Shown piece after piece: positions 52,912 to 64,000 of a stretch of 64,000 nucleotides of DNA; positions within the stretch are counted from its first letter, which is position 1; the number at the start of each line of letters is the position of its first letter. The notes below the pieces were generated by a model. That model was not told the DNA's origin and made no database searches. It was given only the letters and a program-made list of their open reading frames with translations. This stretch comes from a candidate division WWE3 bacterium RAAC2_WWE3_1 (GTDB lineage Bacteria > Patescibacteriota > WWE3 > UBA101185 > UBA10185). The stretch spans positions 657,680 to 721,679 of the forward strand of contig CP006914.1 in NCBI GenBank assembly GCA_000503835.1, read 5' to 3'. The translations under genes were made by a program, and so were the position numbers.

Positions 52912-53300
52912 GGGGATGCACAGGATTTGATTGAGTCCGATTTCGTGCAGTCGCAAGCAGGGGAGCTGAACCCTTATATTTAGCAAAACCATAAATGCCG
53001 ATAAAGACGCATTTGTAGGCGTACCAGCAATGGCCGCCGTAGCAGCTTAATTTATTAACGCTGCGGATCCCGTTTCTTTTGCCCGGAAGGGTTTACGGGG
53101 TCTAATAAATCCGGGAAGAGGTCATATCAGCAATAGCCCTGTTGATACACCGGGGATGAAAAATCCAAAGATCTTAGCTTGCGGTAGGGCAGAAAAGGTT
53201 CTTCAAGCACCCGGCTCTATCTAAGATAAGCTTGGATAAGTTTGTAGAAGCTGCATGAGAAGTTCTCAAGACGGGGGTTCGATTCCCCCCATCTCCACCA
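52912..53300 (+). ncRNA. ssrA: transfer-messenger RNA (tmRNA, SsrA)
   Basis: 5' GGGGATG pairs with 3' CATCTCC(A)CCA (G3-U wobble). Canonical T-arm GGGGGTTCGATTCCCCC. Internal tag ORF ending ...GCA GCT TAA (AMAAVAA*) at 52997-53050. Confidence 0.8.
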
Positions 53301-53465
53301 TGAAATTTTGAAAAGCAACAAGTATATTCGGGTATGCTTCGTATGTCGAAATCCGTTTGTGTTGCCTGGTACATAAGTCATAGGCTGTTATAAAAGCCAA
53401 AAGTCCTCCTATACACTATAATGCTGTATTTTCTCTGCATCACGATGTATCATAATCATTGCATT

Positions 53466-54953
53466 ATGATGCAGATAGAGTTAGATAACATTTTAGATAC
53501 TGTAAAGAAGCTAAACCCGTGGTTTAAGACTGCGGAAGTCCCTTCTAAATTCTTAAAACCATATGTTCGAGAAGAGTTGAGCATCCTAAAGGATACAATG
53601 CAAAACAATGAGCTAGCCACGCTTCTTATTGGTGGCAGAAGAGTTGGAAAAAGCGTGTTGATGTATCAACTTATTGATTCTTTAATTAGGTCGGGGGTAG
53701 ATCCTAAGAAAATACTTTTTGTCCAAGGCGATAACACCATTTTGAGAGAAAACATTTTGGATAAAAATATTTTAAGTGCGGTCATAAAGACTTATGAGAA
53801 GTATATTCTTGATGATGACTTATCTTCTGTTGAAGACACAGTCTATATTTTTCTTGACGAAGCACAGGCACTGCCTAATTGGGATGCCGAGGTTAAAAAT
53901 CACATAGACTTGAAGTACCCAATAAAATTTCTTATTTCTGGTTCCTCCAGTACTAAATTGAGGCAAGGAATTCAGAATCCATTAGTAGGTAGGGTTCACG
54001 TTACAATTTTGTCCCCTTTCAGTTTCCGTGACTTTATTGGATATGAGTCTAGTACCAATGCACTCGATATCCCTTTAAGGGAAATAGACGAGTTGCGAGA
54101 TGAATTCCATGAGTTACTTAAAGCACCGAATATGATTAAGATACAGGAAATTGTAAATAACTTAACACACGTTAAAAACTCATCAGCGTTAGTAAATTTG
54201 TTTAAAGATTATGCTTTATACGGTGGGTTTCCTTATGTAGTTGAGAATAAGGATAAAGAGGATGTTAATAAATACTTACGCGATATATTGCAAATGACTT
54301 TTTCAAAAGATGTTTTGCAGGAAGAGCAAATAAGGGAACCTTTAGCGTTTGAAAGGTTGATGGTAAATATATGTATGAATATAAGTGGTGTATTTAAGTT
54401 AAACTCACTTGCTGAAAAGATTGGTCTTAAAGATGAGAGGACGGTTAGAAGATACATAGATTACTATGTGGACTCACATTATGCTTTTGTCAGCTTGCCT
54501 TTTTCGTTTACAAATAAGCAGGAAACTATAAAGTCAAACAAAAAGATCTACTCTATAGATTCAGGTGTAGTCAATACTCTCTTGTTTAAAAACCAAAAGG
54601 ATTTAGAGAAGGATACAGCGTACATGGGTGTAATAGCTGAGAATATAGTTCATAACGCATTGTTAAGATTTAAACAATGCGCAAGTGGAAATATATATGA
54701 TAGCATTCCTCATTGGAATAATACAAAAACACATCGAGAGATAGATTTTGTTTTTGAAACAGACGGTCAGATTTATCCCGTTGAAGTTAAAAATAAGGAT
54801 ACAATCCGAGAGGAAGAGTTGTTAGAACTGGACTCGTTTTTAACAAGAAAAGAGCTGTCGGGAGTTGGTTTTGTAGTTACCAGTTCATTATTTGAGAAAC
54901 GTGGTACTAATATGTTATTAGTTCCCACACCCATTTTTTCCTTACTCCTGTAA
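53466..54953 (+). CDS. AAA+ ATPase with DUF4143-type C-terminal domain
   Basis: Walker A LLIGGRRVGKSVLM, Walker B IFLDEAQ. Architecture common to the archaeal-ATPase/DUF4143 family. Visibly AT-richer than its neighbours. Confidence 0.7.
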   Translation: MMQIELDNILDTVKKLNPWFKTAEVPSKFLKPYVREELSILKDTMQNNELATLLIGGRRVGKSVLMYQLIDSLIRSGVDPKKILFVQGDNTILRENILDKNILSAVIKTYEKYILDDDLSSVEDTVYIFLDEAQALPNWDAEVKNHIDLKYPIKFLISGSSSTKLRQGIQNPLVGRVHVTILSPFSFRDFIGYESSTNALDIPLREIDELRDEFHELLKAPNMIKIQEIVNNLTHVKNSSALVNLFKDYALYGGFPYVVENKDKEDVNKYLRDILQMTFSKDVLQEEQIREPLAFERLMVNICMNISGVFKLNSLAEKIGLKDERTVRRYIDYYVDSHYAFVSLPFSFTNKQETIKSNKKIYSIDSGVVNTLLFKNQKDLEKDTAYMGVIAENIVHNALLRFKQCASGNIYDSIPHWNNTKTHREIDFVFETDGQIYPVEVKNKDTIREEELLELDSFLTRKELSGVGFVVTSSLFEKRGTNMLLVPTPIFSLLL

Positions 54954-55378
54954 CTACATGTACCTAATTCTAATATATGGTTTTGCAGGAAGCTGCTTAA
55001 CAAGTTACGATTATGCGGCTAGATAAGCTAGTGTCCCATTTTAATACTCATTCTAAGGTTGGGCTCTAGCAGTATAGTTAATGCTGTCTTAAAAAATTTA
55101 ATCCCGTTTGTAGAGGGGCATATTTTTTCTCCGTAAAAAAAACAGAGCCTTCCGGCCCCGCTTTTATATCCGTCTCTCTTTTCTTATTTATCGCAAACCG
55201 AAATGTTACCAGACATTTCATCAGGATGTCTACAAAATTCTAATTTGGTTAGAGGGCTGCTCCTTTTAACAGGTGCCTCCAAGCGTATTATTACTACAGG
55301 ACACCAACTGTCCCATACTATGAGTCCCCATGTATTTAATCCTTGTAATAACAATATAAAATGCGTTGTGGATAACCT

Positions 55379-56107
55379 ATGGAGAACTTACTAAAATATT
55401 TATTTCCGCCCAAATGTGTGTTTTGCGGTAGCGAGGGAGAGATTTTTTGCGGCACGTGCCTGGCTGAATGTTCGTTACTTCCTACACAGTATTGTTTACT
55501 CTGCGACTTACCCTCAGAAAGCGGTTATACCCACAAGCATTGCGCGGAAAAGGCTAAAGTTCCGGTGCCCTCGCGCCTTTTATGCGTGTACAGCTACTCG
55601 GGAAAAGTTAGAGATTGCATAAAATTTTCCAAATATGGAGCAAAACAGTTTTTGAGCTTACGCCAGTTATGCAGAGAGGCCGCCGGTGTTTACGATGAAA
55701 TGTGGGGCGTCCCTACAACGGATTTATGCCTGCCGATTCCTTCCAGTCCTAAGAAACTTGCGTCCCGCGGTTTTAATCAGGCAAATATGATAGCGGAGGA
55801 ATTTTCCAAGAAATTTCATTTGTCCCTGAACAAAAATTTGTTAATTAGAGTGAGAAATACCGAAGCGCAGCACACGCAGGATAGAGAAGGCAGGCGAGAG
55901 AATGTAAGAGGATCGTTTGCCGTAACTAACCCATCTGAAATAAAAGAAAAAAAGATTCTACTCGTGGATGACATAAGTACGACCGGCGCCACCTTTATAG
56001 AATCAACTAAAGTTTTATACGCGGCGGGAGCGGCGGAAGTTCAGTGTCTCGCCCTAAGTAAACGCGAAAAAGTTTGCTATAATGGTGCGGCATATAACCC
56101 CGCTTAA
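55379..56107 (+). CDS. comF: ComF-family protein (double zinc ribbon plus phosphoribosyltransferase domain)
   Basis: N-terminal CVFCG...CGTC and CLLC...HKHC zinc ribbons. PRTase motif ILLVDDISTTGATF. Confidence 0.75.
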   Translation: MENLLKYLFPPKCVFCGSEGEIFCGTCLAECSLLPTQYCLLCDLPSESGYTHKHCAEKAKVPVPSRLLCVYSYSGKVRDCIKFSKYGAKQFLSLRQLCREAAGVYDEMWGVPTTDLCLPIPSSPKKLASRGFNQANMIAEEFSKKFHLSLNKNLLIRVRNTEAQHTQDREGRRENVRGSFAVTNPSEIKEKKILLVDDISTTGATFIESTKVLYAAGAAEVQCLALSKREKVCYNGAAYNPA

Positions 56108-56126
56108 TGTGGCCGTATATATCCCT

Positions 56127-56214
56127 GGAGGGTTGGCAGAGCGGTAATGCAGCGGCTTGCTAAGCCGTGACGGTTAATTGCCGTCCACAGGTTCGAATCC
56201 TGTACCCTCCGCCA
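56127..56214 (+). tRNA. tRNA-Ser (anticodon GCT)
   Basis: Acceptor GGAGGGT/ACCCTCC, anticodon loop TTGCTAA, long variable arm GACGGTTAATTGCCGTC, T-arm ACAGGTTCGAATCCTGT, G73, CCA encoded. Confidence 0.85.
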
Positions 56215-56231
56215 AGAAACAACAACTTATA

Positions 56232-57320
56232 ATGACTGCTAAGCGACACAGAACAAAGATCGGAATAATACTGGGAACCCGCCCCGAAATAATAAAGTTA
56301 TCATCTATAATTCAAATATGCCGGGAAGAGAAGGCAAACTTTTTTATTCTTCACACTAACCAACACTACTCGGAAAACATGGACAAGATTTTTTTTAAAG
56401 ACCTGGAGTTACCCGAACCCAAATACAACCTTAATGTTCAGGAGAGGCTTCACGGGAAAATGATAGGCAGAATGATCGTCGGAATCGAAGAGGTACTTAT
56501 TAAAGAGAAACCGGATTGGATTTTAGTTCAGGGAGACACTAATACGGTTTTGTCAGGGGCGTTGGCCTCCTCGAAATTAAATGTAAGGATAGGCCACGTT
56601 GAATCGGGACTGCGAAGCTACGACCGCACCATGCCCGAGGAGATAAACAGGATCGTGGCCGACCACATCTCGGATGCATTGTTTTGTCCCACGGAAAAAC
56701 AGGCAAACATAGCCCGGGGCGAAGGAATATCGGCGTCGAAGATATTTGTCACGGGAAACACCGTTGTGGACGCCGTGTATAGGGGTAAAAAAATACTGAG
56801 AAAAGGTCGTCTAGCCGATAAATACAAAAGCGAACGTTTCGCTCTCTTAACGCTTCACCGTCCGTCAAACGTAGATGACCGCGGAACACTTTACCGTATT
56901 CTTGAAGCAGTTCATTCCGCAGCCGTCGAAAACAACCTAACGGTTTATTTTCCCGTACACCCGCGGACCATGAAAAACTTGGAAACATTTAATATTAATC
57001 TTGACCCGAGCACCTTTAAGCTGATTGAGCCCGTTGGGTTTTTGGAAATGCTGACGCTGGAGCAATCGGCAAAAGTAATTCTGACCGATTCCGGAGGAGT
57101 GCAGGAAGAGGCTTGTATATTAGGTATTCCCTGTGTAACTATCAGGGATAATACCGAACGACCCGAAACTATTGAGGTCGGAGCGAACGTATTGGTCGGG
57201 AGTGACCCTAAAAAGATCCGAAAAGGAATAACAGACTCTTTGTTGCAGAAACGACATTGGAAAAACCCCTTCGGTGATGGTCTTGCGGGGAAGAGGATAT
57301 TTAAGCACATTACGAAATAA
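56232..57320 (+). CDS. wecB: UDP-N-acetylglucosamine 2-epimerase (non-hydrolysing)
   Basis: KIGIILGTRPEIIKLSSII, VQGDTNTVLSGALAS, HVESGLRSYDRTMPEE, CPTEKQANI are all hallmark WecB/MnaA motifs. Confidence 0.85.
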   Translation: MTAKRHRTKIGIILGTRPEIIKLSSIIQICREEKANFFILHTNQHYSENMDKIFFKDLELPEPKYNLNVQERLHGKMIGRMIVGIEEVLIKEKPDWILVQGDTNTVLSGALASSKLNVRIGHVESGLRSYDRTMPEEINRIVADHISDALFCPTEKQANIARGEGISASKIFVTGNTVVDAVYRGKKILRKGRLADKYKSERFALLTLHRPSNVDDRGTLYRILEAVHSAAVENNLTVYFPVHPRTMKNLETFNINLDPSTFKLIEPVGFLEMLTLEQSAKVILTDSGGVQEEACILGIPCVTIRDNTERPETIEVGANVLVGSDPKKIRKGITDSLLQKRHWKNPFGDGLAGKRIFKHITK

Positions 57321-57392
57321 TTCCGGAGCGGAAAACTCTAAGTATGTTTCGCATTTATTGCGTTCTATCGGTAAAAAAACTATTATTGGACT

Positions 57393-57974
57393 ATGCAAAT
57401 ACCATACTCAAAGATTTTGAACTTTGTAGGTTTGACCAACCAAAAACCGTCCGATAATAAACGACCTGATGGTTTTGACCCCCAAACTCTTGCACCGAAA
57501 GAAATATACGTTGAATGGGAGTCGGTAGTTAAGGCTGAGGTCAAAGAGATGAACAAAAGATTCTCAAGGACCTTTATTATTATAGCTGTTGTTATCGCAC
57601 TTTTGCTCGTGGTAATGAAGGAGTTCGGGTTGATCTTTGTTGTGGCGAGTTTGATTTTTTTCCTGGTGTCGCTTAACAGGCTGCCCGAGCACTCTGTTCA
57701 TGTGGAAGCATCGAGCCACGGAATTAAGTACGGTGACTCCATGTATTATTGGCACGACCTCAGGCAATTCTTTTTTAAACAAATCGCAGGGGCGGAGATT
57801 ATGATTGTAGATACCTACACCTACCTTCCCGGGCGTTTATTTTTTAGTTTCAATCCCGCCGACAAGGCTAAAATAAAAGAGTCGTTGGATAAGCACATAA
57901 CTTATCTTTCAGTGGAGCCGATGTCCTTTCTCGATAAGCTTTTCGAGAACGTCAAAAGCAAATTTAATATATAA
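57393..57974 (+). CDS. hypothetical membrane protein
   Basis: 193 aa. Two TM helices in the middle (FIIIAVVIALLLVVM / VVASLIFFLVSL). Confidence 0.4.
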   Translation: MQIPYSKILNFVGLTNQKPSDNKRPDGFDPQTLAPKEIYVEWESVVKAEVKEMNKRFSRTFIIIAVVIALLLVVMKEFGLIFVVASLIFFLVSLNRLPEHSVHVEASSHGIKYGDSMYYWHDLRQFFFKQIAGAEIMIVDTYTYLPGRLFFSFNPADKAKIKESLDKHITYLSVEPMSFLDKLFENVKSKFNI

Positions 57975-57989
57975 TCACCCTGTAAATAG

Positions 57990-58065
57990 GCACCCGTAGT
58001 TCAGAGGATAGAACGCAGCGTTGCGGACGCTGAAGTCGGGGGTTCGAGTCCCTCCGGGTGCGCCA
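57990..58065 (+). tRNA. tRNA-Arg (anticodon GCG)
   Basis: Acceptor GCACCCG/CGGGTGC, D-arm GTTC..GAAC, anticodon stem CAGCG/CGCTG with loop TTGCGGA, T-arm GGGGGTTCGAGTCCCTC, CCA encoded. Confidence 0.8.
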
Positions 58066-58222
58066 TGAAATTTCGTAAGTACCCAAAGGATGCTTACGAA
58101 ATTTTATTGTTGTACTTGAAGACTCGAATGGCGCAGGCACGGCGGTGCCGAGCCGGGGCCGGGCGGATTGCCAGCAGGCGAGAACGCGTGGCCGAGTCCC
58201 TCCGGGTGCGCCATGGAATTTC
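58046..58222. repeat. 29-bp direct repeat of the tRNA-Arg 3' end (28/29 identical), copies at 58046-58074 and 58194-58222
   Basis: GAGTCCCTCCGGGTGCGCCATGAAATTTC versus GAGTCCCTCCGGGTGCGCCATGGAATTTC. att-site-like duplication flanking about 120 bp. Confidence 0.8.
58068..58108 (+). terminator. intrinsic terminator-like hairpin after tRNA-Arg
   Basis: Perfect 12-bp inverted repeat AAATTTCGTAAG / CTTACGAAATTT with 13-nt loop, followed by a TTTTATTGTTG tract. Confidence 0.5.
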
Positions 58223-58241: not shown

Positions 58242-59057
58242 ATGAAGCATATTCTTTATCATGAGAACAATCTAAAGCACCCGTATGCTCCTCAGGAAGA
58301 TTCCTATCTCCATTCTACAAAAGAAGGTATTTTTGTAGTTGCAGATGGTGTAACGCACGACCCCACAGACCCAACTCTATATCCAATGCCTTCAGATTCT
58401 TATGAGGTTGCACGAATTGTATGTAATGAAGTAATTAAATACCTTGAAGGAAAAGAATTTACAACCGACTCAATAAAGTCGGCTTATTCGGAAGCAAACA
58501 AAAAAGTTGCCGAATATAATTTACATTCTCCTTTATATGCAGAAAGAAAAAATAATGGATTTACTATTGGAGCAGCTGCTGCATCGGTAGTTTGGATAAA
58601 AGAAAATAAACTACTTTATGGAGTTTTAGATGATTGTTTTATTTCTGTATTTGGAGACGATCTTGTTGACCACCCGATGTTGAAATCCTACGTTGAGATG
58701 TCGGCTAAATACCTCGATGGTAATTTTGATTGGGGAAAAATAGGAACCAGAAGACATTGGCGGGAGAATATCAGAAATCACAAAGTAGTTATTGAAGGTA
58801 AGGAGTATGGTTATGGTGTCATTGATGGTAGGGAAGGTTTTGACCAATATCTCCAAACAGGTGAGGTAGCCCTCAACAAAGGAGATTTAGTTTGTGTTTA
58901 TACTGACGGGTTTATTAAAATGTTTCAAGACAGGGAATTCGCCAAAGAGTTGAAGGAAAAGCCGTTTACAGCTGAAACATATAAATTTATCTCTGAAACA
59001 GCAATAAAACTGGAACAATATAAAGAAAAGACCGGTTACTTTATAAAAAATGATTAA
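58242..59057 (+). CDS. hypothetical protein (weak PP2C/SpoIIE-like features)
   Basis: Start chosen at MKHILYHE, downstream of the second repeat copy. GIFVVADGVTHD and GVLDDCFISVFGDD segments are loosely phosphatase-like. Confidence 0.4.
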   Translation: MKHILYHENNLKHPYAPQEDSYLHSTKEGIFVVADGVTHDPTDPTLYPMPSDSYEVARIVCNEVIKYLEGKEFTTDSIKSAYSEANKKVAEYNLHSPLYAERKNNGFTIGAAAASVVWIKENKLLYGVLDDCFISVFGDDLVDHPMLKSYVEMSAKYLDGNFDWGKIGTRRHWRENIRNHKVVIEGKEYGYGVIDGREGFDQYLQTGEVALNKGDLVCVYTDGFIKMFQDREFAKELKEKPFTAETYKFISETAIKLEQYKEKTGYFIKND

Positions 59058-60954: not shown

Positions 60955-61030
60955 GGGCCGTTAGCTCAGTTGGTAGAGCGCCGCATTCGCATTGCGGAGA
61001 TCAGCGGTTCGACTCCGCTACGGTCCACCA
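60955..61030 (+). tRNA. tRNA-Ala (anticodon CGC)
   Basis: Acceptor GGGCCGT/ACGGTCC with the G3:U70 Ala identity pair. Anticodon loop TTCGCAT. T-arm AGCGGTTCGACTCCGCT. CCA encoded. Confidence 0.85.
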
Positions 61031-61178
61031 GAAAAAGTAGCGGTAGCCTGGCTACCGATAGTTTTTCTGTGAATCTAAAGCGAAGAACTACGAAGTGGTT
61101 CGTCATTGCGGAGCAATGTATGAGGAAGCGCAGCGAACGAAGTGAGTGAGCAAGCTCTTACTCCGCTACGGTCCACCA
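61012..61178. repeat. 19-bp perfect direct repeat of the tRNA-Ala 3' end at 61012-61030 and 61160-61178
   Basis: ACTCCGCTACGGTCCACCA occurs twice, 148 bp apart. The second copy lies 26 nt upstream of the 61205 NUDIX gene ATG. Confidence 0.85.
61036..61067 (+). terminator. terminator-like hairpin plus T-run after tRNA-Ala
   Basis: TAGCGGTAGC-CTG-GCTACCGATA followed by GTTTTTCTG. Confidence 0.45.
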
Positions 61179-61204
61179 AAAACTTTTAGTACTAGAAAAA
61201 TATT

Positions 61205-61645
61205 ATGAAAATCGGCGAAGATTTTATAGGTATTGCAACACCCTTCTACTGTAACGATGGAAAAGGCAATTTCTTGCTTCATAAGAGGAGTAAAAAGTGT
61301 AGAGACGAAAATGGTAATTGGGACCCGGGTTCCGGAAAGTTAGATTTTGGAGTAAGTATCGAAGAGAACGTTTTGAAAGAGGTTGCCGAAGAATACGGAT
61401 GTAAGGGGGAGATTCAGGAGCGGCTTCCGGCGCACGATGTTTTTCGCGAGCACGGTGGGGTAAAAACCCATTGGATATCAATTCCATTTTTCATAAAAGT
61501 CAACCCAAAAGAGGTTAGGAATAACGAACCGGATAAAATAGATGAGATTGGTTGGTTCAGATTAGATAATCTGCCAAAACCGCTCCATACTGGTTTTCAA
61601 TTCAGCTTCTCTAAGTTTCGGGATTATTTTGAGAAATACAAGTAA
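61205..61645 (+). CDS. NUDIX hydrolase
   Basis: NUDIX box G-x5-E-x7-REVxEExG: PGSGKLDFGVSIEENVLKEVAEEYG. Confidence 0.6.
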   Translation: MKIGEDFIGIATPFYCNDGKGNFLLHKRSKKCRDENGNWDPGSGKLDFGVSIEENVLKEVAEEYGCKGEIQERLPAHDVFREHGGVKTHWISIPFFIKVNPKEVRNNEPDKIDEIGWFRLDNLPKPLHTGFQFSFSKFRDYFEKYK

Positions 61646-61662: not shown

Positions 61663-61971
61663 TTAGACGAAATAAGCTTTGGAGACACTAAAATCTTCCC
61701 CGACCTCAACCCCATCTTCTTCCAGAAGTCTTTTCTGTTCTAGCGCCGGAATTTCGTTGTGTTTTATACTTATATAACCTTTCGCGTTGATAATTCTCCA
61801 CCAGGGAGTATCTTTTTCATCGCCCCATCGGTTGAGTACCCACCCGACTTCTCTTGCCCCTCTGGGTTTTCCGGCAAAAAGGGCGATTTGACCGTAGCTT
61901 GCAACCCGGCCTTTTGGGATTCTCCGTACCTCTTCTAATACCTTATCTTTAAAGCTCGTTTGTGCCTCCAT
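61663..61971 (-). CDS. alkyltransferase-like (Atl) / MGMT-family DNA-binding protein lacking the active-site Cys
   Basis: RVASYGQIA...GKPRGAREVG...PWWRIIN. The MGMT C-terminal HTH-like domain is present but PCHR is replaced by PWWR. Confidence 0.55.
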   Translation of the reverse strand: MEAQTSFKDKVLEEVRRIPKGRVASYGQIALFAGKPRGAREVGWVLNRWGDEKDTPWWRIINAKGYISIKHNEIPALEQKRLLEEDGVEVGEDFSVSKAYFV

Positions 61972-62013
61972 GATGCCTTTATTCTACCAATGCTGTATAC
62001 TTTATTCGACTTT

Positions 62014-62104
62014 GGAGGGATACCGAAGTGGTCATACCGGGCTGGTCTCGAAAACCAAGCGTGGGGCAACTCACACGTGGGTTCGAATCCCACTCCCTCC
62101 GCCA
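62014..62104 (+). tRNA. tRNA-Ser (anticodon CGA)
   Basis: Acceptor GGAGGGA/TCCCTCC, anticodon loop CTCGAAA on a CTGGT/ACCAA stem (top pair mismatched), long variable arm, T-arm GTGGGTTCGAATCCCAC, G73, CCA encoded. Confidence 0.7.
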
Positions 62105-62241
62105 GCAAAAAGTGGCCGGCGTTCACCGCCGGATATTTTTTGCTTGAGGGAAGCTGATTGAACAGCGAAGCAGGTTCGAATAACACATTTCTGCGAACGA
62201 AGTGAGTGGAAATGCTTTACGAAGTAAAACTCCCTCCGCCA
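62092..62241. repeat. 13-bp direct repeat of the tRNA-Ser(CGA) 3' end at 62092-62104 and 62229-62241
   Basis: ACTCCCTCCGCCA occurs twice, 137 bp apart. First member of a downstream repeat series. Confidence 0.75.
62116..62141 (+). terminator. terminator-like GC hairpin plus T-run after tRNA-Ser(CGA)
   Basis: CCGGCG-TTCAC-CGCCGG followed by ATATTTTTTG. Confidence 0.45.
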
Positions 62242-62304
62242 TGTACGAATTCGTTACTACCACAACCAATTCCTAGTTCCAAAGTTAAGTAGTATTATTG
62301 TTTT

Positions 62305-62697
62305 ATGCGAAGGGCTGTTGCTGGTATTGTGTTATTCAAAAATAAAGTACTGATTGGCAAAAAGATTGTCAAAGAAGGCCATTTTGTTAGTGGTGGTTGG
62401 CACATACCGGGAGGACATGTAGAAGAAAATGAAAATGACACCGACGCTTTGATGAGGGAGTTTCAAGAGGAAACACAATTAAAAATAAGAATTATTAAAA
62501 AGTTATGTGATTTCATCATCGAAGAAACAGATACCAGTTTGGGCTGGTTTATTTGTTCTACCGATACGGATAAAGCTGTACCGGGAGATGACCTGACTCA
62601 AATAGATTTTGTAGATAAAACAGAGGTTGCTACAAAATGCGATTCTCGCGCAGTAAGATTATGGCCATCAGAGGTAATAGACTATTTATCTAGATAA
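62305..62697 (+). CDS. NUDIX hydrolase
   Basis: NUDIX box GGWHIPGGHVEENENDTDALMREFQEETQL. Confidence 0.65.
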   Translation: MRRAVAGIVLFKNKVLIGKKIVKEGHFVSGGWHIPGGHVEENENDTDALMREFQEETQLKIRIIKKLCDFIIEETDTSLGWFICSTDTDKAVPGDDLTQIDFVDKTEVATKCDSRAVRLWPSEVIDYLSR

Positions 62698-62720
62698 GTA
62701 TTAGGGAATTTAGCTATCGC

Positions 62721-62767
62721 GAAAAAAGTTCCAAGTACGTCCAACTCCCTCCGCCATGTTAGAATGT
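62721..62767. repeat. intergenic repeat unit R2 containing a tRNA-Ser 3'-end-like core (AACTCCCTCCGCCATGT)
   Basis: GAAAAAAGTTCCAAGTACGTCCAACTCCCTCCGCCATGTTAGAATGT. About 85% identical to R3 at 63328-63374. Confidence 0.7.
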
Positions 62768-62771
62768 CCTT

Positions 62772-63317
62772 ATGTCTATAAGAATTACCTATTTTGTTCA
62801 TGGAACAACCACTGATAATCTACAAGAAATTTCTTCTGGTTGGTCGGATGTAGAACTGTCGGATAAAGGAGTTCAACAATCTATAGATTTAAGGGATCAA
62901 ATAAAAGGTAAAAAGTTCGATGCGGTGTTTTGTTCGGATCTAAAAAGGGCAGTGAAGTCTGCTGAATTGACTTTCAAGGATGAAGCTCCTATTTTTCAGG
63001 ATAAGCGATTAAGAGAATGTAACTATGGAAAATATAATGCACAACCATCTTCAGTTGTTGAGCCCCTCCAAGAGAAATATATAACTGAGCAGTTTCCTGA
63101 TGGCGAAAGTTATGAAGATGTGAAGCTAAGAATACTCGAATTTTTACAGGATTTGAGACAGAATTACGAAGGAAAAAGTATCGCTATTGTTGCGCATAAA
63201 GCCCCACAACTCGCTTTGGATGTGTTACTAGTCGGGAAATCTTGGGAAGAAGCGTTTGCACAGGATTGGAGAAAAAGAAAAGCTTGGCAACCCGGTTGGG
63301 ATTACACCCTCGCGTAA
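62772..63317 (+). CDS. histidine phosphatase superfamily (phosphoglycerate-mutase-like) protein
   Basis: N-terminal ITYFVHGTTTDN (RHG-type catalytic motif variant), ...SDLKRA..., C-terminal IVAHKAP (His of the second motif). Confidence 0.6.
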   Translation: MSIRITYFVHGTTTDNLQEISSGWSDVELSDKGVQQSIDLRDQIKGKKFDAVFCSDLKRAVKSAELTFKDEAPIFQDKRLRECNYGKYNAQPSSVVEPLQEKYITEQFPDGESYEDVKLRILEFLQDLRQNYEGKSIAIVAHKAPQLALDVLLVGKSWEEAFAQDWRKRKAWQPGWDYTLA

Positions 63318-63327
63318 GCTAACTTGG

Positions 63328-63374
63328 AGAAAAAGCTCCAAGTACGTCCCATGCCCTCCGCCAAGGTAGAATGT
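63328..63374. repeat. intergenic repeat unit R3 (degenerate copy of R2)
   Basis: GAGAAAAAGCTCCAAGTACGTCCCATGCCCTCCGCCAAGGTAGAATGT. Confidence 0.65.
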
Positions 63375-63462
63375 TGCTAGCGCGCCTTTATTAGCTATCC
63401 AACCACTGTTGATCTGCATGCTATAATGCATCCAACTTAAAATCAAAAGGAAGGAGTTTGCA

Positions 63463-63729
63463 ATGACTGACCCGGCTTCAGATTGTAGTGGCGCATTTCT
63501 AAACATTCCTGAAATCATGTGTGATTGGTTTAATGTCAGCACCGAGGAGGAGGGACGCACAAACGCTCAGAAAATAGCCAATGAAATGGGTAAGGTAATA
63601 ATCCTCCTAAGAAACGCTGACGGGGTATTCTATTTTGCCCTAGCGGGTTCGGGAGGGTTTGAAAGGGCAAAAAAGCAGTTAATTGAGTTTAACTTTGTGC
63701 AAATAGCAACCTATGAACCCGTGAAGTAG
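63463..63729 (+). CDS. hypothetical small protein
   Basis: 88-aa ORF preceded by a GGAAGGAG ribosome-binding site 7 nt upstream of the ATG. Confidence 0.4.
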   Translation: MTDPASDCSGAFLNIPEIMCDWFNVSTEEEGRTNAQKIANEMGKVIILLRNADGVFYFALAGSGGFERAKKQLIEFNFVQIATYEPVK

Positions 63730-63846
63730 ATAGTACTACCAGCCTATGTTTTACCATCCTAAACATAGGCTTTCTTTTTAAAATTTTTCCCCCGGCCCAG
63801 TACTCATCGGACACATAGATAAATAATTTCCAATATTACCCAGTGT

Positions 63847-63873
63847 CCTCCGCAATGTATCAAATTCGTTACC
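63847..63873. repeat. repeat unit R4 (same subfamily as R1: CCTCCGC[C/A]ATGTA..AAATTCGTTAC)
   Basis: TCCTCCGCAATGTATCAAATTCGTTACCC versus R1 CCCTCCGCCATGTACGAATTCGTTACTACC at 62232-62261. Confidence 0.6.
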
Positions 63874-63924
63874 CTTGGATCATTGGCAAGTTCCAACCCT
63901 GAAAATTTTCTGTATTATAGTTTC

Positions 63925-64000
63925 ATGGACACTAAAGAACTTTCTCATACTAGAGTAAATCAACCACAGGAAACTGACCCCGTATTTTTCTATCCAAAAG
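63925..64000 (+). CDS. possible 5' end of a further cassette gene (runs off the window)
   Basis: An ATG 78 nt downstream of R4 opens a frame (MDTKELSHTRVNQPQE...) that continues to the window edge. Same spacing as the R1-to-NUDIX arrangement. Confidence 0.2.
   Translation, partial: MDTKELSHTRVNQPQETDPVFFYPK

Follow-up and report, generated by a model that had tools for sequence, protein, structure and literature searches.

The window analysed here, a 64,000-nt stretch from the genome of an ultra-small WWE3 bacterium, ends in an array of small genes behind tRNA-Ser(CGA). Over the 1.8 kb that follow this tRNA, four copies of its last 9–13 nt occur, each within a longer repeat (R1 to R4), and successive copies delimit discrete units with one small gene. 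Further upstream, tRNA-Arg(GCG) and tRNA-Ala(CGC) are followed by tail repeats as well. The features are, in order:

57990–58214, + strand: tRNA-Arg(GCG) (57990–58065), hairpin, structured module A and tail repeat (58195–58214)
60955–61179, + strand: tRNA-Ala(CGC) (60955–61030), hairpin, module B and tail repeat (61161–61179)
62014–62104, + strand: tRNA-Ser(CGA) (ARAGORN; Rfam tRNA)
62105–62241, + strand: non-coding mini-insert of 137 bp (conservation, fold)
62229–62241, + strand: R1, ACTCCCTCCGCCA, the 3' end of the non-coding mini-insert
62242–62282, + strand: right flank of R1, P'-type, TGTACGAATTCGTTAC..., then AGTTCCAA at 62275–62282
62305–62697, + strand: cassette gene 1, NUDIX hydrolase, 130 aa (ORF; Pfam NUDIX)
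62723–62756, + strand: R2, putative attR-type scar, P-type arm AAAAAGTTCCAAGTACGTCC followed by tRNA tail AACTCCCTCCGCCA
62772–63317, + strand: cassette gene 2, histidine phosphatase (His_Phos_1), 181 aa (ORF; Pfam)
63330–63363, + strand: R3, putative attR-type scar, AAAAAGCTCCAAGTACGTCCCATGCCCTCCGCCA
63463–63729, + strand: cassette gene 3, 88-aa protein with no family match (ORF)
63822–63896, + strand: R4, putative decayed attP-like junction
63925–64000 (start), + strand: cassette gene 4, NADAR, 163 aa, running past the window end (ORF; extension on contig L001)

The tRNA and the repeats lie where the first-pass annotation had put them, and each interval indeed holds one ORF: NUDIX, His_Phos_1, the 88-aa protein and the NADAR gene starting at 63925. 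The 88-aa protein has no Pfam or NCBIfam match; its gene, as read from the sequence, comes with a TGCTATAAT box of its own and an SD sequence, and a hairpin with a T-run lies downstream of it. The identical contig L001 gives a view beyond the window end, where a radical SAM gene and a CTP_transf_like gene, both on the minus strand, precede a fifth repeat, R5 (L001 13105–13140), and a 512-aa ORF. The window had been described as free of integrase genes; this holds, and the next 9.3 kb also contain no recombinase.

Behind tRNA-Ala, a NUDIX gene and an Atl-like gene had been taken for an equivalent pair of cargo genes. The NUDIX gene (61205–61645) is unique to the present species, but the Atl-like gene (61663–61971, minus strand) adjoins tRNA-Ser(CGA) in seven of eight species and is thus conserved backbone. 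The tRNA-Arg insert is likewise followed by a species-specific gene, PP2C-like (58242–59057, PP2C_2 match).

tRNA tails within the repeats

The 9-mer CCTCCGCCA from the tRNA tail is found without mismatch at 62233, 62748 and 63355, and a fourth copy, at 63847, differs by one base; elsewhere in the 64 kb it recurs exactly only at the 3' ends of the two tRNA-Ser genes. Allowing one mismatch at most, 23 matches are found where 9.8 are expected. None of 100 shuffled sequences reaches 23, which rules out a chance origin of the repeats, so that they withstand the significance test proposed for them. For the exact 9-mer, simple arithmetic over one strand and 1.9 kb gives an expectation of about 0.007, against three found. 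A repeat search groups the four sites into a single 45-nt family, at 62208, 62723, 63330 and 63822 (spacings of 515, 607 and 492), and the DNA between the repeats is unrelated from interval to interval.

R2 and R3, 87% identical, consist of a 24-nt arm, AAAAAGTTCCAAGTRCGTCCCA, and about 10 nt of tRNA tail; both have AAAAAG[T/C]TCCAAGTACGTCC as left arm and GTAGAATGT as right flank. R1 and R4 have only a right flank in common, TGTA(T)C(A)AATTCGTTAC, followed by a GTTCCAA motif whose first base lies 35 nt 3' of the last tRNA-tail base (CCA at R1, CAA at R4). The division into R1/R4 and R2/R3 subfamilies is correct, yet judging by the shared arm or flank the two represent different parts of a junction. 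In R4, a degenerate P arm, TTTCCAATATTACCCAGTG, leads into the tail TCCTCCGCAA ending at 63855, then into the P' flank TGTATCAAATTCGTTAC... and AGTTCCAA at 63889–63896. The flank of R1 is homologous to one in L008 that directly follows the tRNA there, and its type also adjoins the 3' end of a recombinase gene in L122.

Structured inserts behind tRNAs

R1 is not the end of a gene cassette; it is the 3' end of the 137-bp insert, which consists of a terminator-like hairpin (62105–62143), a structured tRNA-like core and R1 itself. This mini-insert is kept in L001, L010, L011 and L013 with compensatory changes, and its single-stranded DNA folds with z = -3.1. Structured inserts of this type, about 130 bp long, follow tRNA-Ser(CGA), tRNA-Arg and tRNA-Ala; the fold scores of the latter two are z = -5.1 and z = -4.3, their tail-repeat coordinates having been read off the raw sequence. 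Module A of these units has a helix that co-varies with the target tRNA.

A known RNA family was sought for the repeats and mini-inserts, and Rfam (cmscan of L001, E up to 1) returned only tRNA, tmRNA and chance matches, none of them for either. A tRNA pseudogene, split tRNA or intron was also rejected: the tRNA upstream is intact and the insert contains no 5' half. If confirmed, the structured mini-inserts behind tRNAs and tmRNA would form an undescribed class of element.

Site geometry across WWE3

The R unit, defined as the 24-nt arm plus tail, stands behind tRNA-Ser, tRNA-Asp and tRNA-Gln in eight WWE3 species and in 45 metagenome loci matched by a strict 19-nt pattern. Wherever the contig has a tRNA (Ser, Asp or Gln), the unit lies downstream and co-oriented in 44 of the 45 loci; in the exception, L092, the pattern match is not followed by a tRNA tail. 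Usually the unit carries the last 9–14 nt of its own upstream tRNA. A scan of IMG/VR for a free phage or plasmid R unit gave three matches, with no tRNAs and no tail after the motif, which we treated as chance.

Of 65 R units, 57, R2 among them, have the first base of GTTCCAA 29 nt from the CCA end; in 84 of 85 tRNAs, the first base of GTTCRA is 24 nt from the CCA end, as is that of GTTCGAA in tRNA-Ser(CGA). In serine-integrase sites the ZD motif occupies bp 16–24 of attP and bp 11–19 of attB half-sites, a 5-bp shift (PMC3783163). The 5-bp offset between R units and tRNAs appears to be this attP/attB offset typical of serine integrases. We infer that the GTTCCAA/GTTCRA motif is the ZD site and, from the 5-bp shift, that the crossover would fall about 6 nt before the tRNA 3' end; the same centre is indicated by a dyad in L094 and by A/T tracts in L122. 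A crossover within the T-loop, or at a YR dinucleotide 11–12 nt from the tRNA end, was rejected as conflicting with both the 29/24 geometry and the published ZD positions. The tRNA-Ser(CGA) gene would be the primary attachment site, offering a B-type half-site.

The second GTTCCAA, in direct orientation about 35 nt after the CCA end, is foreign to standard serine-integrase sites. As a universal left boundary of cassettes it fails, since among 135 distinct junction ends only 8 are followed by GTTCCA with its first base at 33–38 nt; we keep it as a lead.

Variation between genomes

The order tmRNA, Ser(GCT), Arg, exchanger, Ala, Ser(CGA), Ser(GGA) is found in all eight WWE3 species, in the loci covering the region (exchanger identity 95–54%; two loci incomplete). 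Spacing, on the other hand, ranges among species from 318 to 6994 bp between Ala and Ser(CGA), from 1239 to 7716 bp between Ser(CGA) and Ser(GGA), and from 72 to 7061 bp between Arg and the exchanger. From species to species, the content behind a tRNA changes in steps of whole units. Gene order is not constant across related genomes, whereas an identical order would have counted against the array.

One comparison is with the array of L133. The histidine-phosphatase unit (62723–63363) is 87.7% identical to L133 4952–5593 and homology of the NADAR unit begins at 63888, but the 88-aa unit with one repeat (63364–63887) is missing there. Units also change place. The CTP_transf unit takes the first position after the tRNA in L011 but the fifth in the present genome; a YbaK-like unit heads the row behind Ser(GCT) in L093 and comes second after Ser(TGA) in L117. 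For three cassettes, homology between copies begins exactly at GTTCCAA. The NUDIX unit next to the tRNA, whose gene and flanks are also present in L008 at 89% nucleotide identity, has diverged from that copy as much as the backbone has, yet the distal units differ. Strictly tRNA-proximal insertion is therefore not the whole story; units must also be lost, or exchanged at internal repeats.

Variation is confined to comparisons between species: close strains, one of them at 98.6% identity, show none in the array, for which a strain-level comparison of cassette number and order had been proposed. Two other candidates were set aside. Deletions in the GenBank records of L003 and L004 fall within the tRNA and tmRNA genes themselves and resemble assembly errors, not excision events; and f44 and some other shared families, similar only in their coding parts and with no flanking R units, are uninformative as evidence of mobility.

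Serine recombinase elements in sister species

Elements of 5–7 kb that encode a large serine recombinase (LSR) and a rolling-circle replication initiator (Rep) of the G2P/Phage_CRI type adjoin tRNA-Ala in L014, Ser(GCT) and Ser(CGA) in L015, and Arg in L011. Their LSRs have the Pfam domains Resolvase and Recombinase (plus Zn_ribbon_recom; L014 and L015 proteins), with a PHROG integrase match at 1e-75, and the LSR ORF has its stop codon inside the tRNA, on the antisense strand. An integrase beside the tRNA is present in intact copies in L014, L015 (twice), L011, L122 and L132, all of them in sister species and none in the window.

These elements are tied to the repeats by their ends. The L014 element ends in AGTTCCAACATAGTCTAGAATGGTCCACCA; in L122, tRNA-Gln is followed by a TGTATCGATATCGTTG flank, then by a fragment of an LSR, and finally by a canonical R unit that carries the Gln tail. 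Both thus end in the R-unit arm, and they are the only two with both ends identified. In L132, a canonical R unit lies between two LSR-Rep elements. Among the roughly 40 proteins scanned from these regions there is no tyrosine recombinase; the large minus-strand ORFs by tRNAs, considered as candidates, proved to be GH130, to have a 5-hmdU kinase or a SIR2 domain, or to match no family.

Origin of the array

We propose that the array is an accretion zone formed as elements integrated one after another, site-specifically, into the tRNA-Ser(CGA) 3' end, with a probability of about 0.78, and classify it as a new version of tRNA-anchored island accretion. Each unit would be a small piece of foreign DNA with an attachment-site scar at its right end, composed of the element's recombinase-binding arm (P-type, AAAAAGTTCCAAGTRCGTCCCA) and then about 10–13 nt of tRNA tail. 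The recombinase is most likely an LSR, carried by the 5–7 kb elements with rolling-circle Rep, and we infer that such an enzyme made these particular junctions. Integration would regenerate the tRNA and move the old tail downstream; because the tail is displaced at each integration, repeated events would stack units, the newer ones probably nearer the tRNA. In the present genome the array would consist of scars retaining the genes delivered (NUDIX, histidine phosphatase, the 88-aa protein, NADAR and others). Of the two origins first suggested, the LSRs of sister species favour serial integration at one att site; IntI and attC, which an integron-like array would call for, are missing.

Several points sit less easily with serial integration. 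No recombinase lies in the window or the next 9.3 kb, L014 and L122 alone have both ends identified, and the second GTTCCAA belongs to no standard serine-integrase site. To our knowledge, serine integrases are not expected to target attL-like sites, so re-integration at an occupied tRNA needs explaining. Moreover, most units are far smaller than intact elements, with a median of 600 bp against 5–7 kb.

The single-gene units may instead be mobile themselves, as an integron-like cassette system in which circles of 0.3–1 kb, each with one gene and a single recombination site made up of arm and tRNA-tail core, are integrated, cut out and shuffled in trans, by the LSR of a resident element or by a rolling-circle Rep copying between two GTTCCAA motifs. 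This reading, which refines serial integration and does not exclude it, is a serious possibility, if well short of an even chance. Non-redundant units delimited by a tRNA or an R unit number 42, of which 34 are below 1 kb and 29 have exactly one ORF of at least 50 aa; their median length is the 600 bp given above. One-unit indels, cassettes that change position between arrays and between tRNAs, and the homology of three cassettes from GTTCCAA onwards point the same way, as does L132, where a cassette-like unit (GTTCCAA, a 207-aa ORF, R) lies between two intact LSR-Rep elements. The phage f1 origin with GTTCCAAACTGGAAC is served by a Rep of the G2P family. The occurrence of GTTCCAAACTGGAAC within that origin (PMC8134756) also favours copying by Rep. 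However, selection for useful cargo together with the deletion bias of streamlined genomes could shrink decayed full-size elements to a similar size; GTTCCA follows too few junction ends at the required distance (8/135); the cassettes stand in both orientations with their own -10 boxes, unlike integron cassettes; and there is no turnover among close strains.

In its fullest form, this would amount to an integron-like cassette economy of WWE3 without an integron: 0.3–1 kb single-gene units and 130-nt structured non-coding units would be individually mobile, copied as single-stranded DNA by Rep between GTTCCAA motifs and inserted by an LSR at tRNA or tmRNA 3' ends, with the target reprogrammed by a few bases of the tail core. 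As a whole, we consider it less likely than not. Should single-gene units indeed move alone, they would constitute a serine-recombinase counterpart of the integron.

Slippage can produce direct repeats, and local duplication or unequal crossing-over of the tRNA 3' region was considered for this reason; the arm beside the tail is not tRNA sequence, though, and stays conserved between species and whether it follows a Ser, an Asp or a Gln tRNA, while the inter-repeat DNA is unrelated. Targeting of tRNAs is classically a property of tyrosine integrases, which would argue for another type of integrase, such as an unsampled tyrosine recombinase. A tyrosine recombinase is present in 910 of 937 tycheposons (bioRxiv 10.1101/2020.12.28.424599), but only serine recombinases were found at the sites described here. 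Duplication or another integrase is, taken together, improbable.

There is even less reason to see in the repeats host promoter, terminator or tRNA-like processing signals for the small genes. The 24-nt arm occurs both upstream of plus-strand genes and downstream of minus-strand genes, its orientation always follows the tRNA and not the gene, and it marks the ends of LSR elements; R4 and R5 have decayed, and the neighbouring genes are intact nonetheless. Such signals would fit the terminator-like hairpins of the mini-inserts and the -10-like hexamer that follows CCA in R2 and R3, with a similar one before a phosphatase gene elsewhere. TAGAAT lies 6 nt 5' of the histidine-phosphatase ATG, and on its account R2 and R3 had been suggested for testing as promoters. 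After R2 it is probably the -10 box of the phosphatase gene, but as part of the cassette and not of the repeat, because a -10-like hexamer stands at equal distance before the phosphatase gene in unrelated contexts. R units as sigma-70 promoters were rejected, as a promoter scan found no enrichment (6 against 5.4 expected) and GTTCCAA lies at an inconsistent -35 distance.

A classical integron, with IntI acting on folded attC sites and the tRNA end as a coincidental neighbour, can practically be dismissed: one ORF and one repeat per unit is a superficial resemblance in organisation and its only support, no IntI or tyrosine recombinase occurs in the window, the 9 kb beyond or the scanned proteins, which come from eight species and from the metagenome loci, attC-like hairpins are absent at R2, R3 and R4 (single-stranded DNA fold z of +0.17 to -1.34, both strands), the repeats are tRNA tails, and genes of sister arrays lie on both strands.

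Comparison with known systems

Under serial integration, the nearest relatives of the array are the tycheposons of Prochlorococcus (Hackl et al., bioRxiv 10.1101/2020.12.28.424599). These also lie next to a full-length tRNA, with partial tRNA copies separating the elements, and in the WWE3 array we find just this, a full-length tRNA at one end and co-oriented partial copies between units. In both, incoming elements are thought to push older ones outward, islands contain scattered degenerate remnants and extra partial tRNAs, and elements with integration, replication and cargo modules reside in streamlined host genomes. A minority of tycheposons have a large serine recombinase, whereas only serine recombinases are seen in WWE3. 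The WWE3 system further differs in its CPR host, its rolling-circle G2P-type Rep as replication module, its mostly uniform single-gene remnants of about 0.6 kb, each with a conserved 24-nt arm, and its structured non-coding 130-bp inserts at the same sites.

With serine integrases such as A118/LI, Bxb1 and phiC31 (Rutherford et al. 2013, PMC3783163) the WWE3 sites share the LSR domain set, a 7–8 bp motif shifted by 5 bp between element-type and host-type half-sites, and hybrid flanks of attL/attR type. They differ in that the LSR stop codon lies antisense in the tRNA, that occupied sites seem to be re-used, and that the targets are the 3' ends of several tRNAs, for which the element must carry the tRNA tail, giving direct repeats of at least 10 nt. 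Repeats of this length are uncommon among serine integrases. A single site design, apparently retargeted to Ser, Asp and Gln tRNAs by a few core bases, would if confirmed be relevant to serine-integrase engineering.

Integrons, for their part, resemble the array in their mostly single-ORF units with one recombination site each, their single primary anchor site, and the gain, loss and repositioning of whole units, as in the one-unit indel between the window and L133. The WWE3 array has no IntI, no folded attC and no common promoter; its genes lie on both strands with their own -10 boxes, and its primary site is a tRNA 3' end. The sister-species elements also recall the inovirus-like or rolling-circle elements of CPR bacteria, which combine a G2P/Phage_CRI Rep with an integrase at a tRNA (Roux et al. 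2019, PMC6813254), except that Pfam and PHROGs recognise no morphogenesis (pI/Zot) or coat genes in the intact copies, so that a viral nature is not evident.

Bacteria of the CPR have tiny genomes, and we know of few recognised routes of gene exchange among them. Here, tRNA 3' ends would serve as landing pads on which small accessory genes are stacked and swapped between species, and repeated site-specific insertion would explain why related species have different genes behind tRNA-Ser. The 24-nt arm followed by a tRNA tail provides a simple search key for mapping such cargo across metagenomes. As for the cargo itself, the theme of 'housecleaning' enzymes holds qualitatively: enzymes of nucleotides, of NAD-related reactions or of DNA repair account for many of the genes, with NUDIX, histidine phosphatase, NADAR, methylpurine glycosylase, a YbaK-like editing domain and an rRNA methylase as the examples.

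An array of attachment-site-bounded units behind tRNA-Ser(CGA)

Downstream of tRNA-Ser(CGA), units bounded by attachment sites have accreted in an array anchored on the tRNA; elements with a serine recombinase, of the kind found intact in sister species, most likely built it. The first-pass annotation had described tandem one-gene units separated by tRNA-tail repeats, a description confirmed by the tRNA call, exact repeat copies, shuffles, the repeat family and the ORFs. Exact copies of the tRNA's last nine bases, CCTCCGCCA, lie at 62233, 62748 and 63355, and a copy with a single mismatch at 63847; elsewhere in the 64 kb, the sequence is found exactly only at the ends of the two tRNA-Ser genes. 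Allowing up to one mismatch, 23 matches are found against 9.8 expected, a count reached by none of 100 shuffles. A repeat search places the four sites, R1 to R4, in a single 45-nt family whose successive members are 515, 607 and 492 nt apart (R2 and R3 are 87% identical), and each interval between repeats holds one ORF.

tRNA-Ser(CGA) and ORFs of the array intervals
62014-62104, tRNA-Ser(CGA), ARAGORN
62305-62697, NUDIX
62772-63317, His_Phos_1
63463-63729, 88-aa protein without family match
from 63925, NADAR

On L001, a contig that is identical to the window and reaches beyond its end, the array continues with NADAR, radical SAM and CTP_transf_like genes, the latter two on the minus strand, and then repeat R5, the fifth. 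The 9.3 kb past the window end contain no recombinase. The radical SAM gene (L001 11708-12427, just past the window end) has its best NCBIfam similarity to prokaryotic viperins, and the adjoining NADAR protein matches an anti-phage NADAR family, both below threshold; a defence or counter-defence flavour of the cargo is possible.

A classical integron, which the arrangement had been said to resemble, is ruled out: no IntI gene was found, the R2-R4 junctions do not fold (z +0.2 to -1.3), and genes of sister arrays lie on both strands with individual -10-like boxes. R2 and R3, with the hexamer TAGAAT near the ATG, had been raised as possible promoters. A promoter scan gave no excess, which speaks against that role for the repeat; the TAGAAT that follows R2 probably serves the phosphatase gene as its -10 box. 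TAATAT or TATAAT stands at about the same distance 5' of the phosphatase in the compared locus L133 and in an unrelated Yonathbacteria context.

The repeat unit and its recombinase

R2, R3 and R5 are copies of a cross-species unit, (G)AAAAAAGTTCCAAGTRCGTCCCA followed by two variable bases and a tRNA tail. Scanning metagenome contigs with the 19-nt arm yielded 45 loci, in 44 of which a tRNA-tail-like sequence follows the arm (the exception is L092). Wherever a scanned contig carries the tRNA, the unit lies 3' of it and co-oriented, behind Ser(GCT/CGA/GGA/TGA), Asp(GTC) or Gln(TTG), and its tail usually equals the last 9-14 nt of that tRNA.

In sister species, minus-strand Resolvase + Recombinase (+ Zn_ribbon_recom) genes are found directly 3' of tRNA-Ala (L014), Ser(GCT) and Ser(CGA) (L015) and Arg (L011). 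These are large serine recombinases (LSRs), each followed by a rolling-circle replication initiator (Rep) of the G2P/Phage_CRI type. Their ORFs extend antisense into the tRNA (L014 11841-11870; L015 2122-2169; L011 2876-2940; L122, oriented, 1723-1785), with the stop codon inside it; since the ORF crosses the attachment site, the recombinase's last residues are encoded by tRNA sequence. AGTTCCAACATAGTCTAGAATGGTCCACCA closes the L014 element 5.1 kb downstream, and GGTCCACCAATT is common to that end and the tRNA side. Behind tRNA-Gln of L122 stands TGTATCGATATCGTTG, where a fragment of an LSR gene has its 3' end, and the element finishes in the canonical arm joined to the Gln tail. L132 has a canonical unit between two LSR-Rep elements, abutting the LSR gene end of the second. 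L122 and L132 are two further loci that tie the arm to the LSR elements. No tyrosine recombinase was present among about 40 proteins scanned, and no virion genes were recognised among proteins of the sister-species elements.

The flank TGTATCRAWWTCGTTRC is present after R1 and R4 in the window, as in L122. Because it follows R4, this repeat has the form arm-core-P' and is an attP-like junction between two stacked units. The junction in L116/L119 equals the reconstructed L122 attP, bar about three core bases (Ser versus Gln tail).

In 57 of 65 units the distance from the start of GTTCCAA to the CCA end is 29 nt; for the T-loop GTTCRA of tRNAs it is 24 nt, in 84 of 85. In serine integrases the distal (ZD) motif occupies bp 16-24 in attP versus bp 11-19 in attB, 5 bp farther out (Rutherford et al., PMC3783163). 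Read by this rule, the 29/24 geometry would set the crossover some 6 nt short of the tRNA 3' end, with CC(G)CCA as its predicted location; the same centre is indicated by a perfect dyad in L094 and by A/T tracts in L122.

A second GTTCCAA, in direct orientation, occurs about 35 nt past the CCA of some junctions and some native tRNA-Ser genes, at 8 of 135 ends, where 0.2 would be expected. In copies of the same cassette, homology begins exactly at this motif; the 33-nt spacer before it keeps its length and not its sequence. Two intact LSR elements also have GTTCCAA at +94 and +195. A similar repeat, GTTCCAAAC, is part of the f1 phage origin.

Sites of the second GTTCCAA
window, 62276 and 63890
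L008, 5117
L011, 13926
L093, 10950
L117, 1643
L133, 5627

The closest described system is the tycheposon islands of Prochlorococcus. New here are the CPR host, the pairing of serine recombinase with rolling-circle Rep, the uniform one-gene units with a conserved arm, and the structured mini-inserts described below.

Units vary as wholes

The 42 non-redundant units have a median length of 600 bp, and 29 of them contain one ORF. Window 62723-63363 (R2, phosphatase, R3) aligns with L133 at 87.7% identity, the phosphatase being 89% identical; 63364-63887 (the 88-aa gene and R4) is missing from L133, and the alignment of the NADAR unit begins at 63888. The CTP_transf unit is fifth in this genome; in L011 it has been inserted precisely at the border of tRNA and non-coding insert. 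A YbaK-like unit takes first place after Ser(GCT) in L093 and second place after Ser(TGA) in L117. The NUDIX unit is 89% identical to its L008 copy, a divergence equal to that of the backbone, and everything distal to R2 differs, so loss or exchange at internal repeats must take place too. To mobility of single cassettes on their own we give about one chance in three.

The histidine phosphatase (62772-63317, 181 aa) has over 7,400 homologues. Copies from distant CPR lineages, in unrelated gene contexts, are 73-78% identical (L136 5001-5546; L137-L139); one lies between pheS and pheT in a Yonathbacteria genome, and one identical protein occurs on three contigs with different neighbourhoods. A -10-like hexamer is found just 5' of its ATG in every context compared.

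Structured mini-inserts

R1 is the end of a 137-bp non-coding insert (62105-62241), kept in four species, with a terminator-like hairpin and a structured core. Kindred inserts lie behind tRNA-Arg, tRNA-Ala, tRNA-Ser(GGA) and tRNA-Ser(GCT), and behind tmRNA in two sister species. The tRNA-Ala tail recurs 137 bp downstream as ACTCCGCTACGGTCCACCA (61161-61179), the tRNA-Arg tail likewise 137 bp downstream (58195-58214, running a few bases past CCA), and the tRNA-Ser(GGA) repeat 202 bp downstream in L001.

Mini-inserts, 126-202 bp
window, 58066-58214, 61031-61179 and 62105-62241
L001, 16855-17067
L013, 6576-6724
L120, 6216-6362
L132, 4250-4436

Each combines a terminator-like hairpin, a module backed by covariation and a tRNA-tail copy. 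The inserts fold far better than shuffles (z -3.1 to -5.1), and no Rfam family matches. Their module A, a three-way junction in 13 distinct copies, has 96.4% of cells paired and double changes in 14 of 26 pairs; none of 500 shuffles reaches these values, and pairing is about 30% in slid controls. The outer helix of module A base-pairs with the T-loop segment of the tRNA-tail copy and changes in step with tRNA identity. The mini-inserts behave as insertion units of their own: L124 has two one after the other, and in L011 and L012 cassettes separate the tRNA from the mini-insert.

Conserved backbone and variable content

The window, from candidate division WWE3 (CPR), is identical to an ENA contig and near-identical to GenBank MAGs, and the array is unchanged in close strains, one at 98.6% identity. 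The backbone is kept in seven other WWE3 species (Na/H exchanger identity 95-54%; two loci truncated). What comes immediately 3' of each tRNA varies strongly among the species. The Atl-like gene, earlier taken as cargo after tRNA-Ala, belongs to this backbone: it is kept next to Ser(CGA) across species except in L013, which lacks the ORF. The Ser(CGA) site of L013 is essentially empty, with the non-coding insert only.

Backbone order and spacings
Order: tmRNA, Ser(GCT), 193-aa gene, Arg, exchanger, Ala, Atl-like (minus strand), Ser(CGA), DNA_alkylation, NTP_transferase, Ser(GGA)
Ala to Ser(CGA), 318-6994 bp
Ser(CGA) to Ser(GGA), 1239-7716 bp
Arg to exchanger, 72-7061 bp

In L005, a strain with 98.6% identity downstream, the UDP-GlcNAc 2-epimerase-like gene immediately 3' of tRNA-Ser(GCT) (56220-57352) is absent, and identity is only 76% upstream of this tRNA (L005 71-1183 versus window 55136-57352). 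From the alignment, the difference looks like a recombination breakpoint at tRNA-Ser(GCT); the right end of the region is missing a repeat unit. At 52912-54953 the tmRNA precedes an AAA_14/DUF4143 ATPase gene, which lies in the window's lowest-GC stretch (0.38); gene content there differs in other species, two of which carry a module A insert behind tmRNA. Two 2015 assemblies, L003 and L004 (LCDP01000005, LCCL01000008), have short deletions in the tmRNA, tRNA-Arg and tRNA-Ser(CGA) bodies (window 53020, 53246, 58053, 62044, 57912-57974 and 61937-62024), most likely assembly errors, which strip the tRNAs from their annotation.
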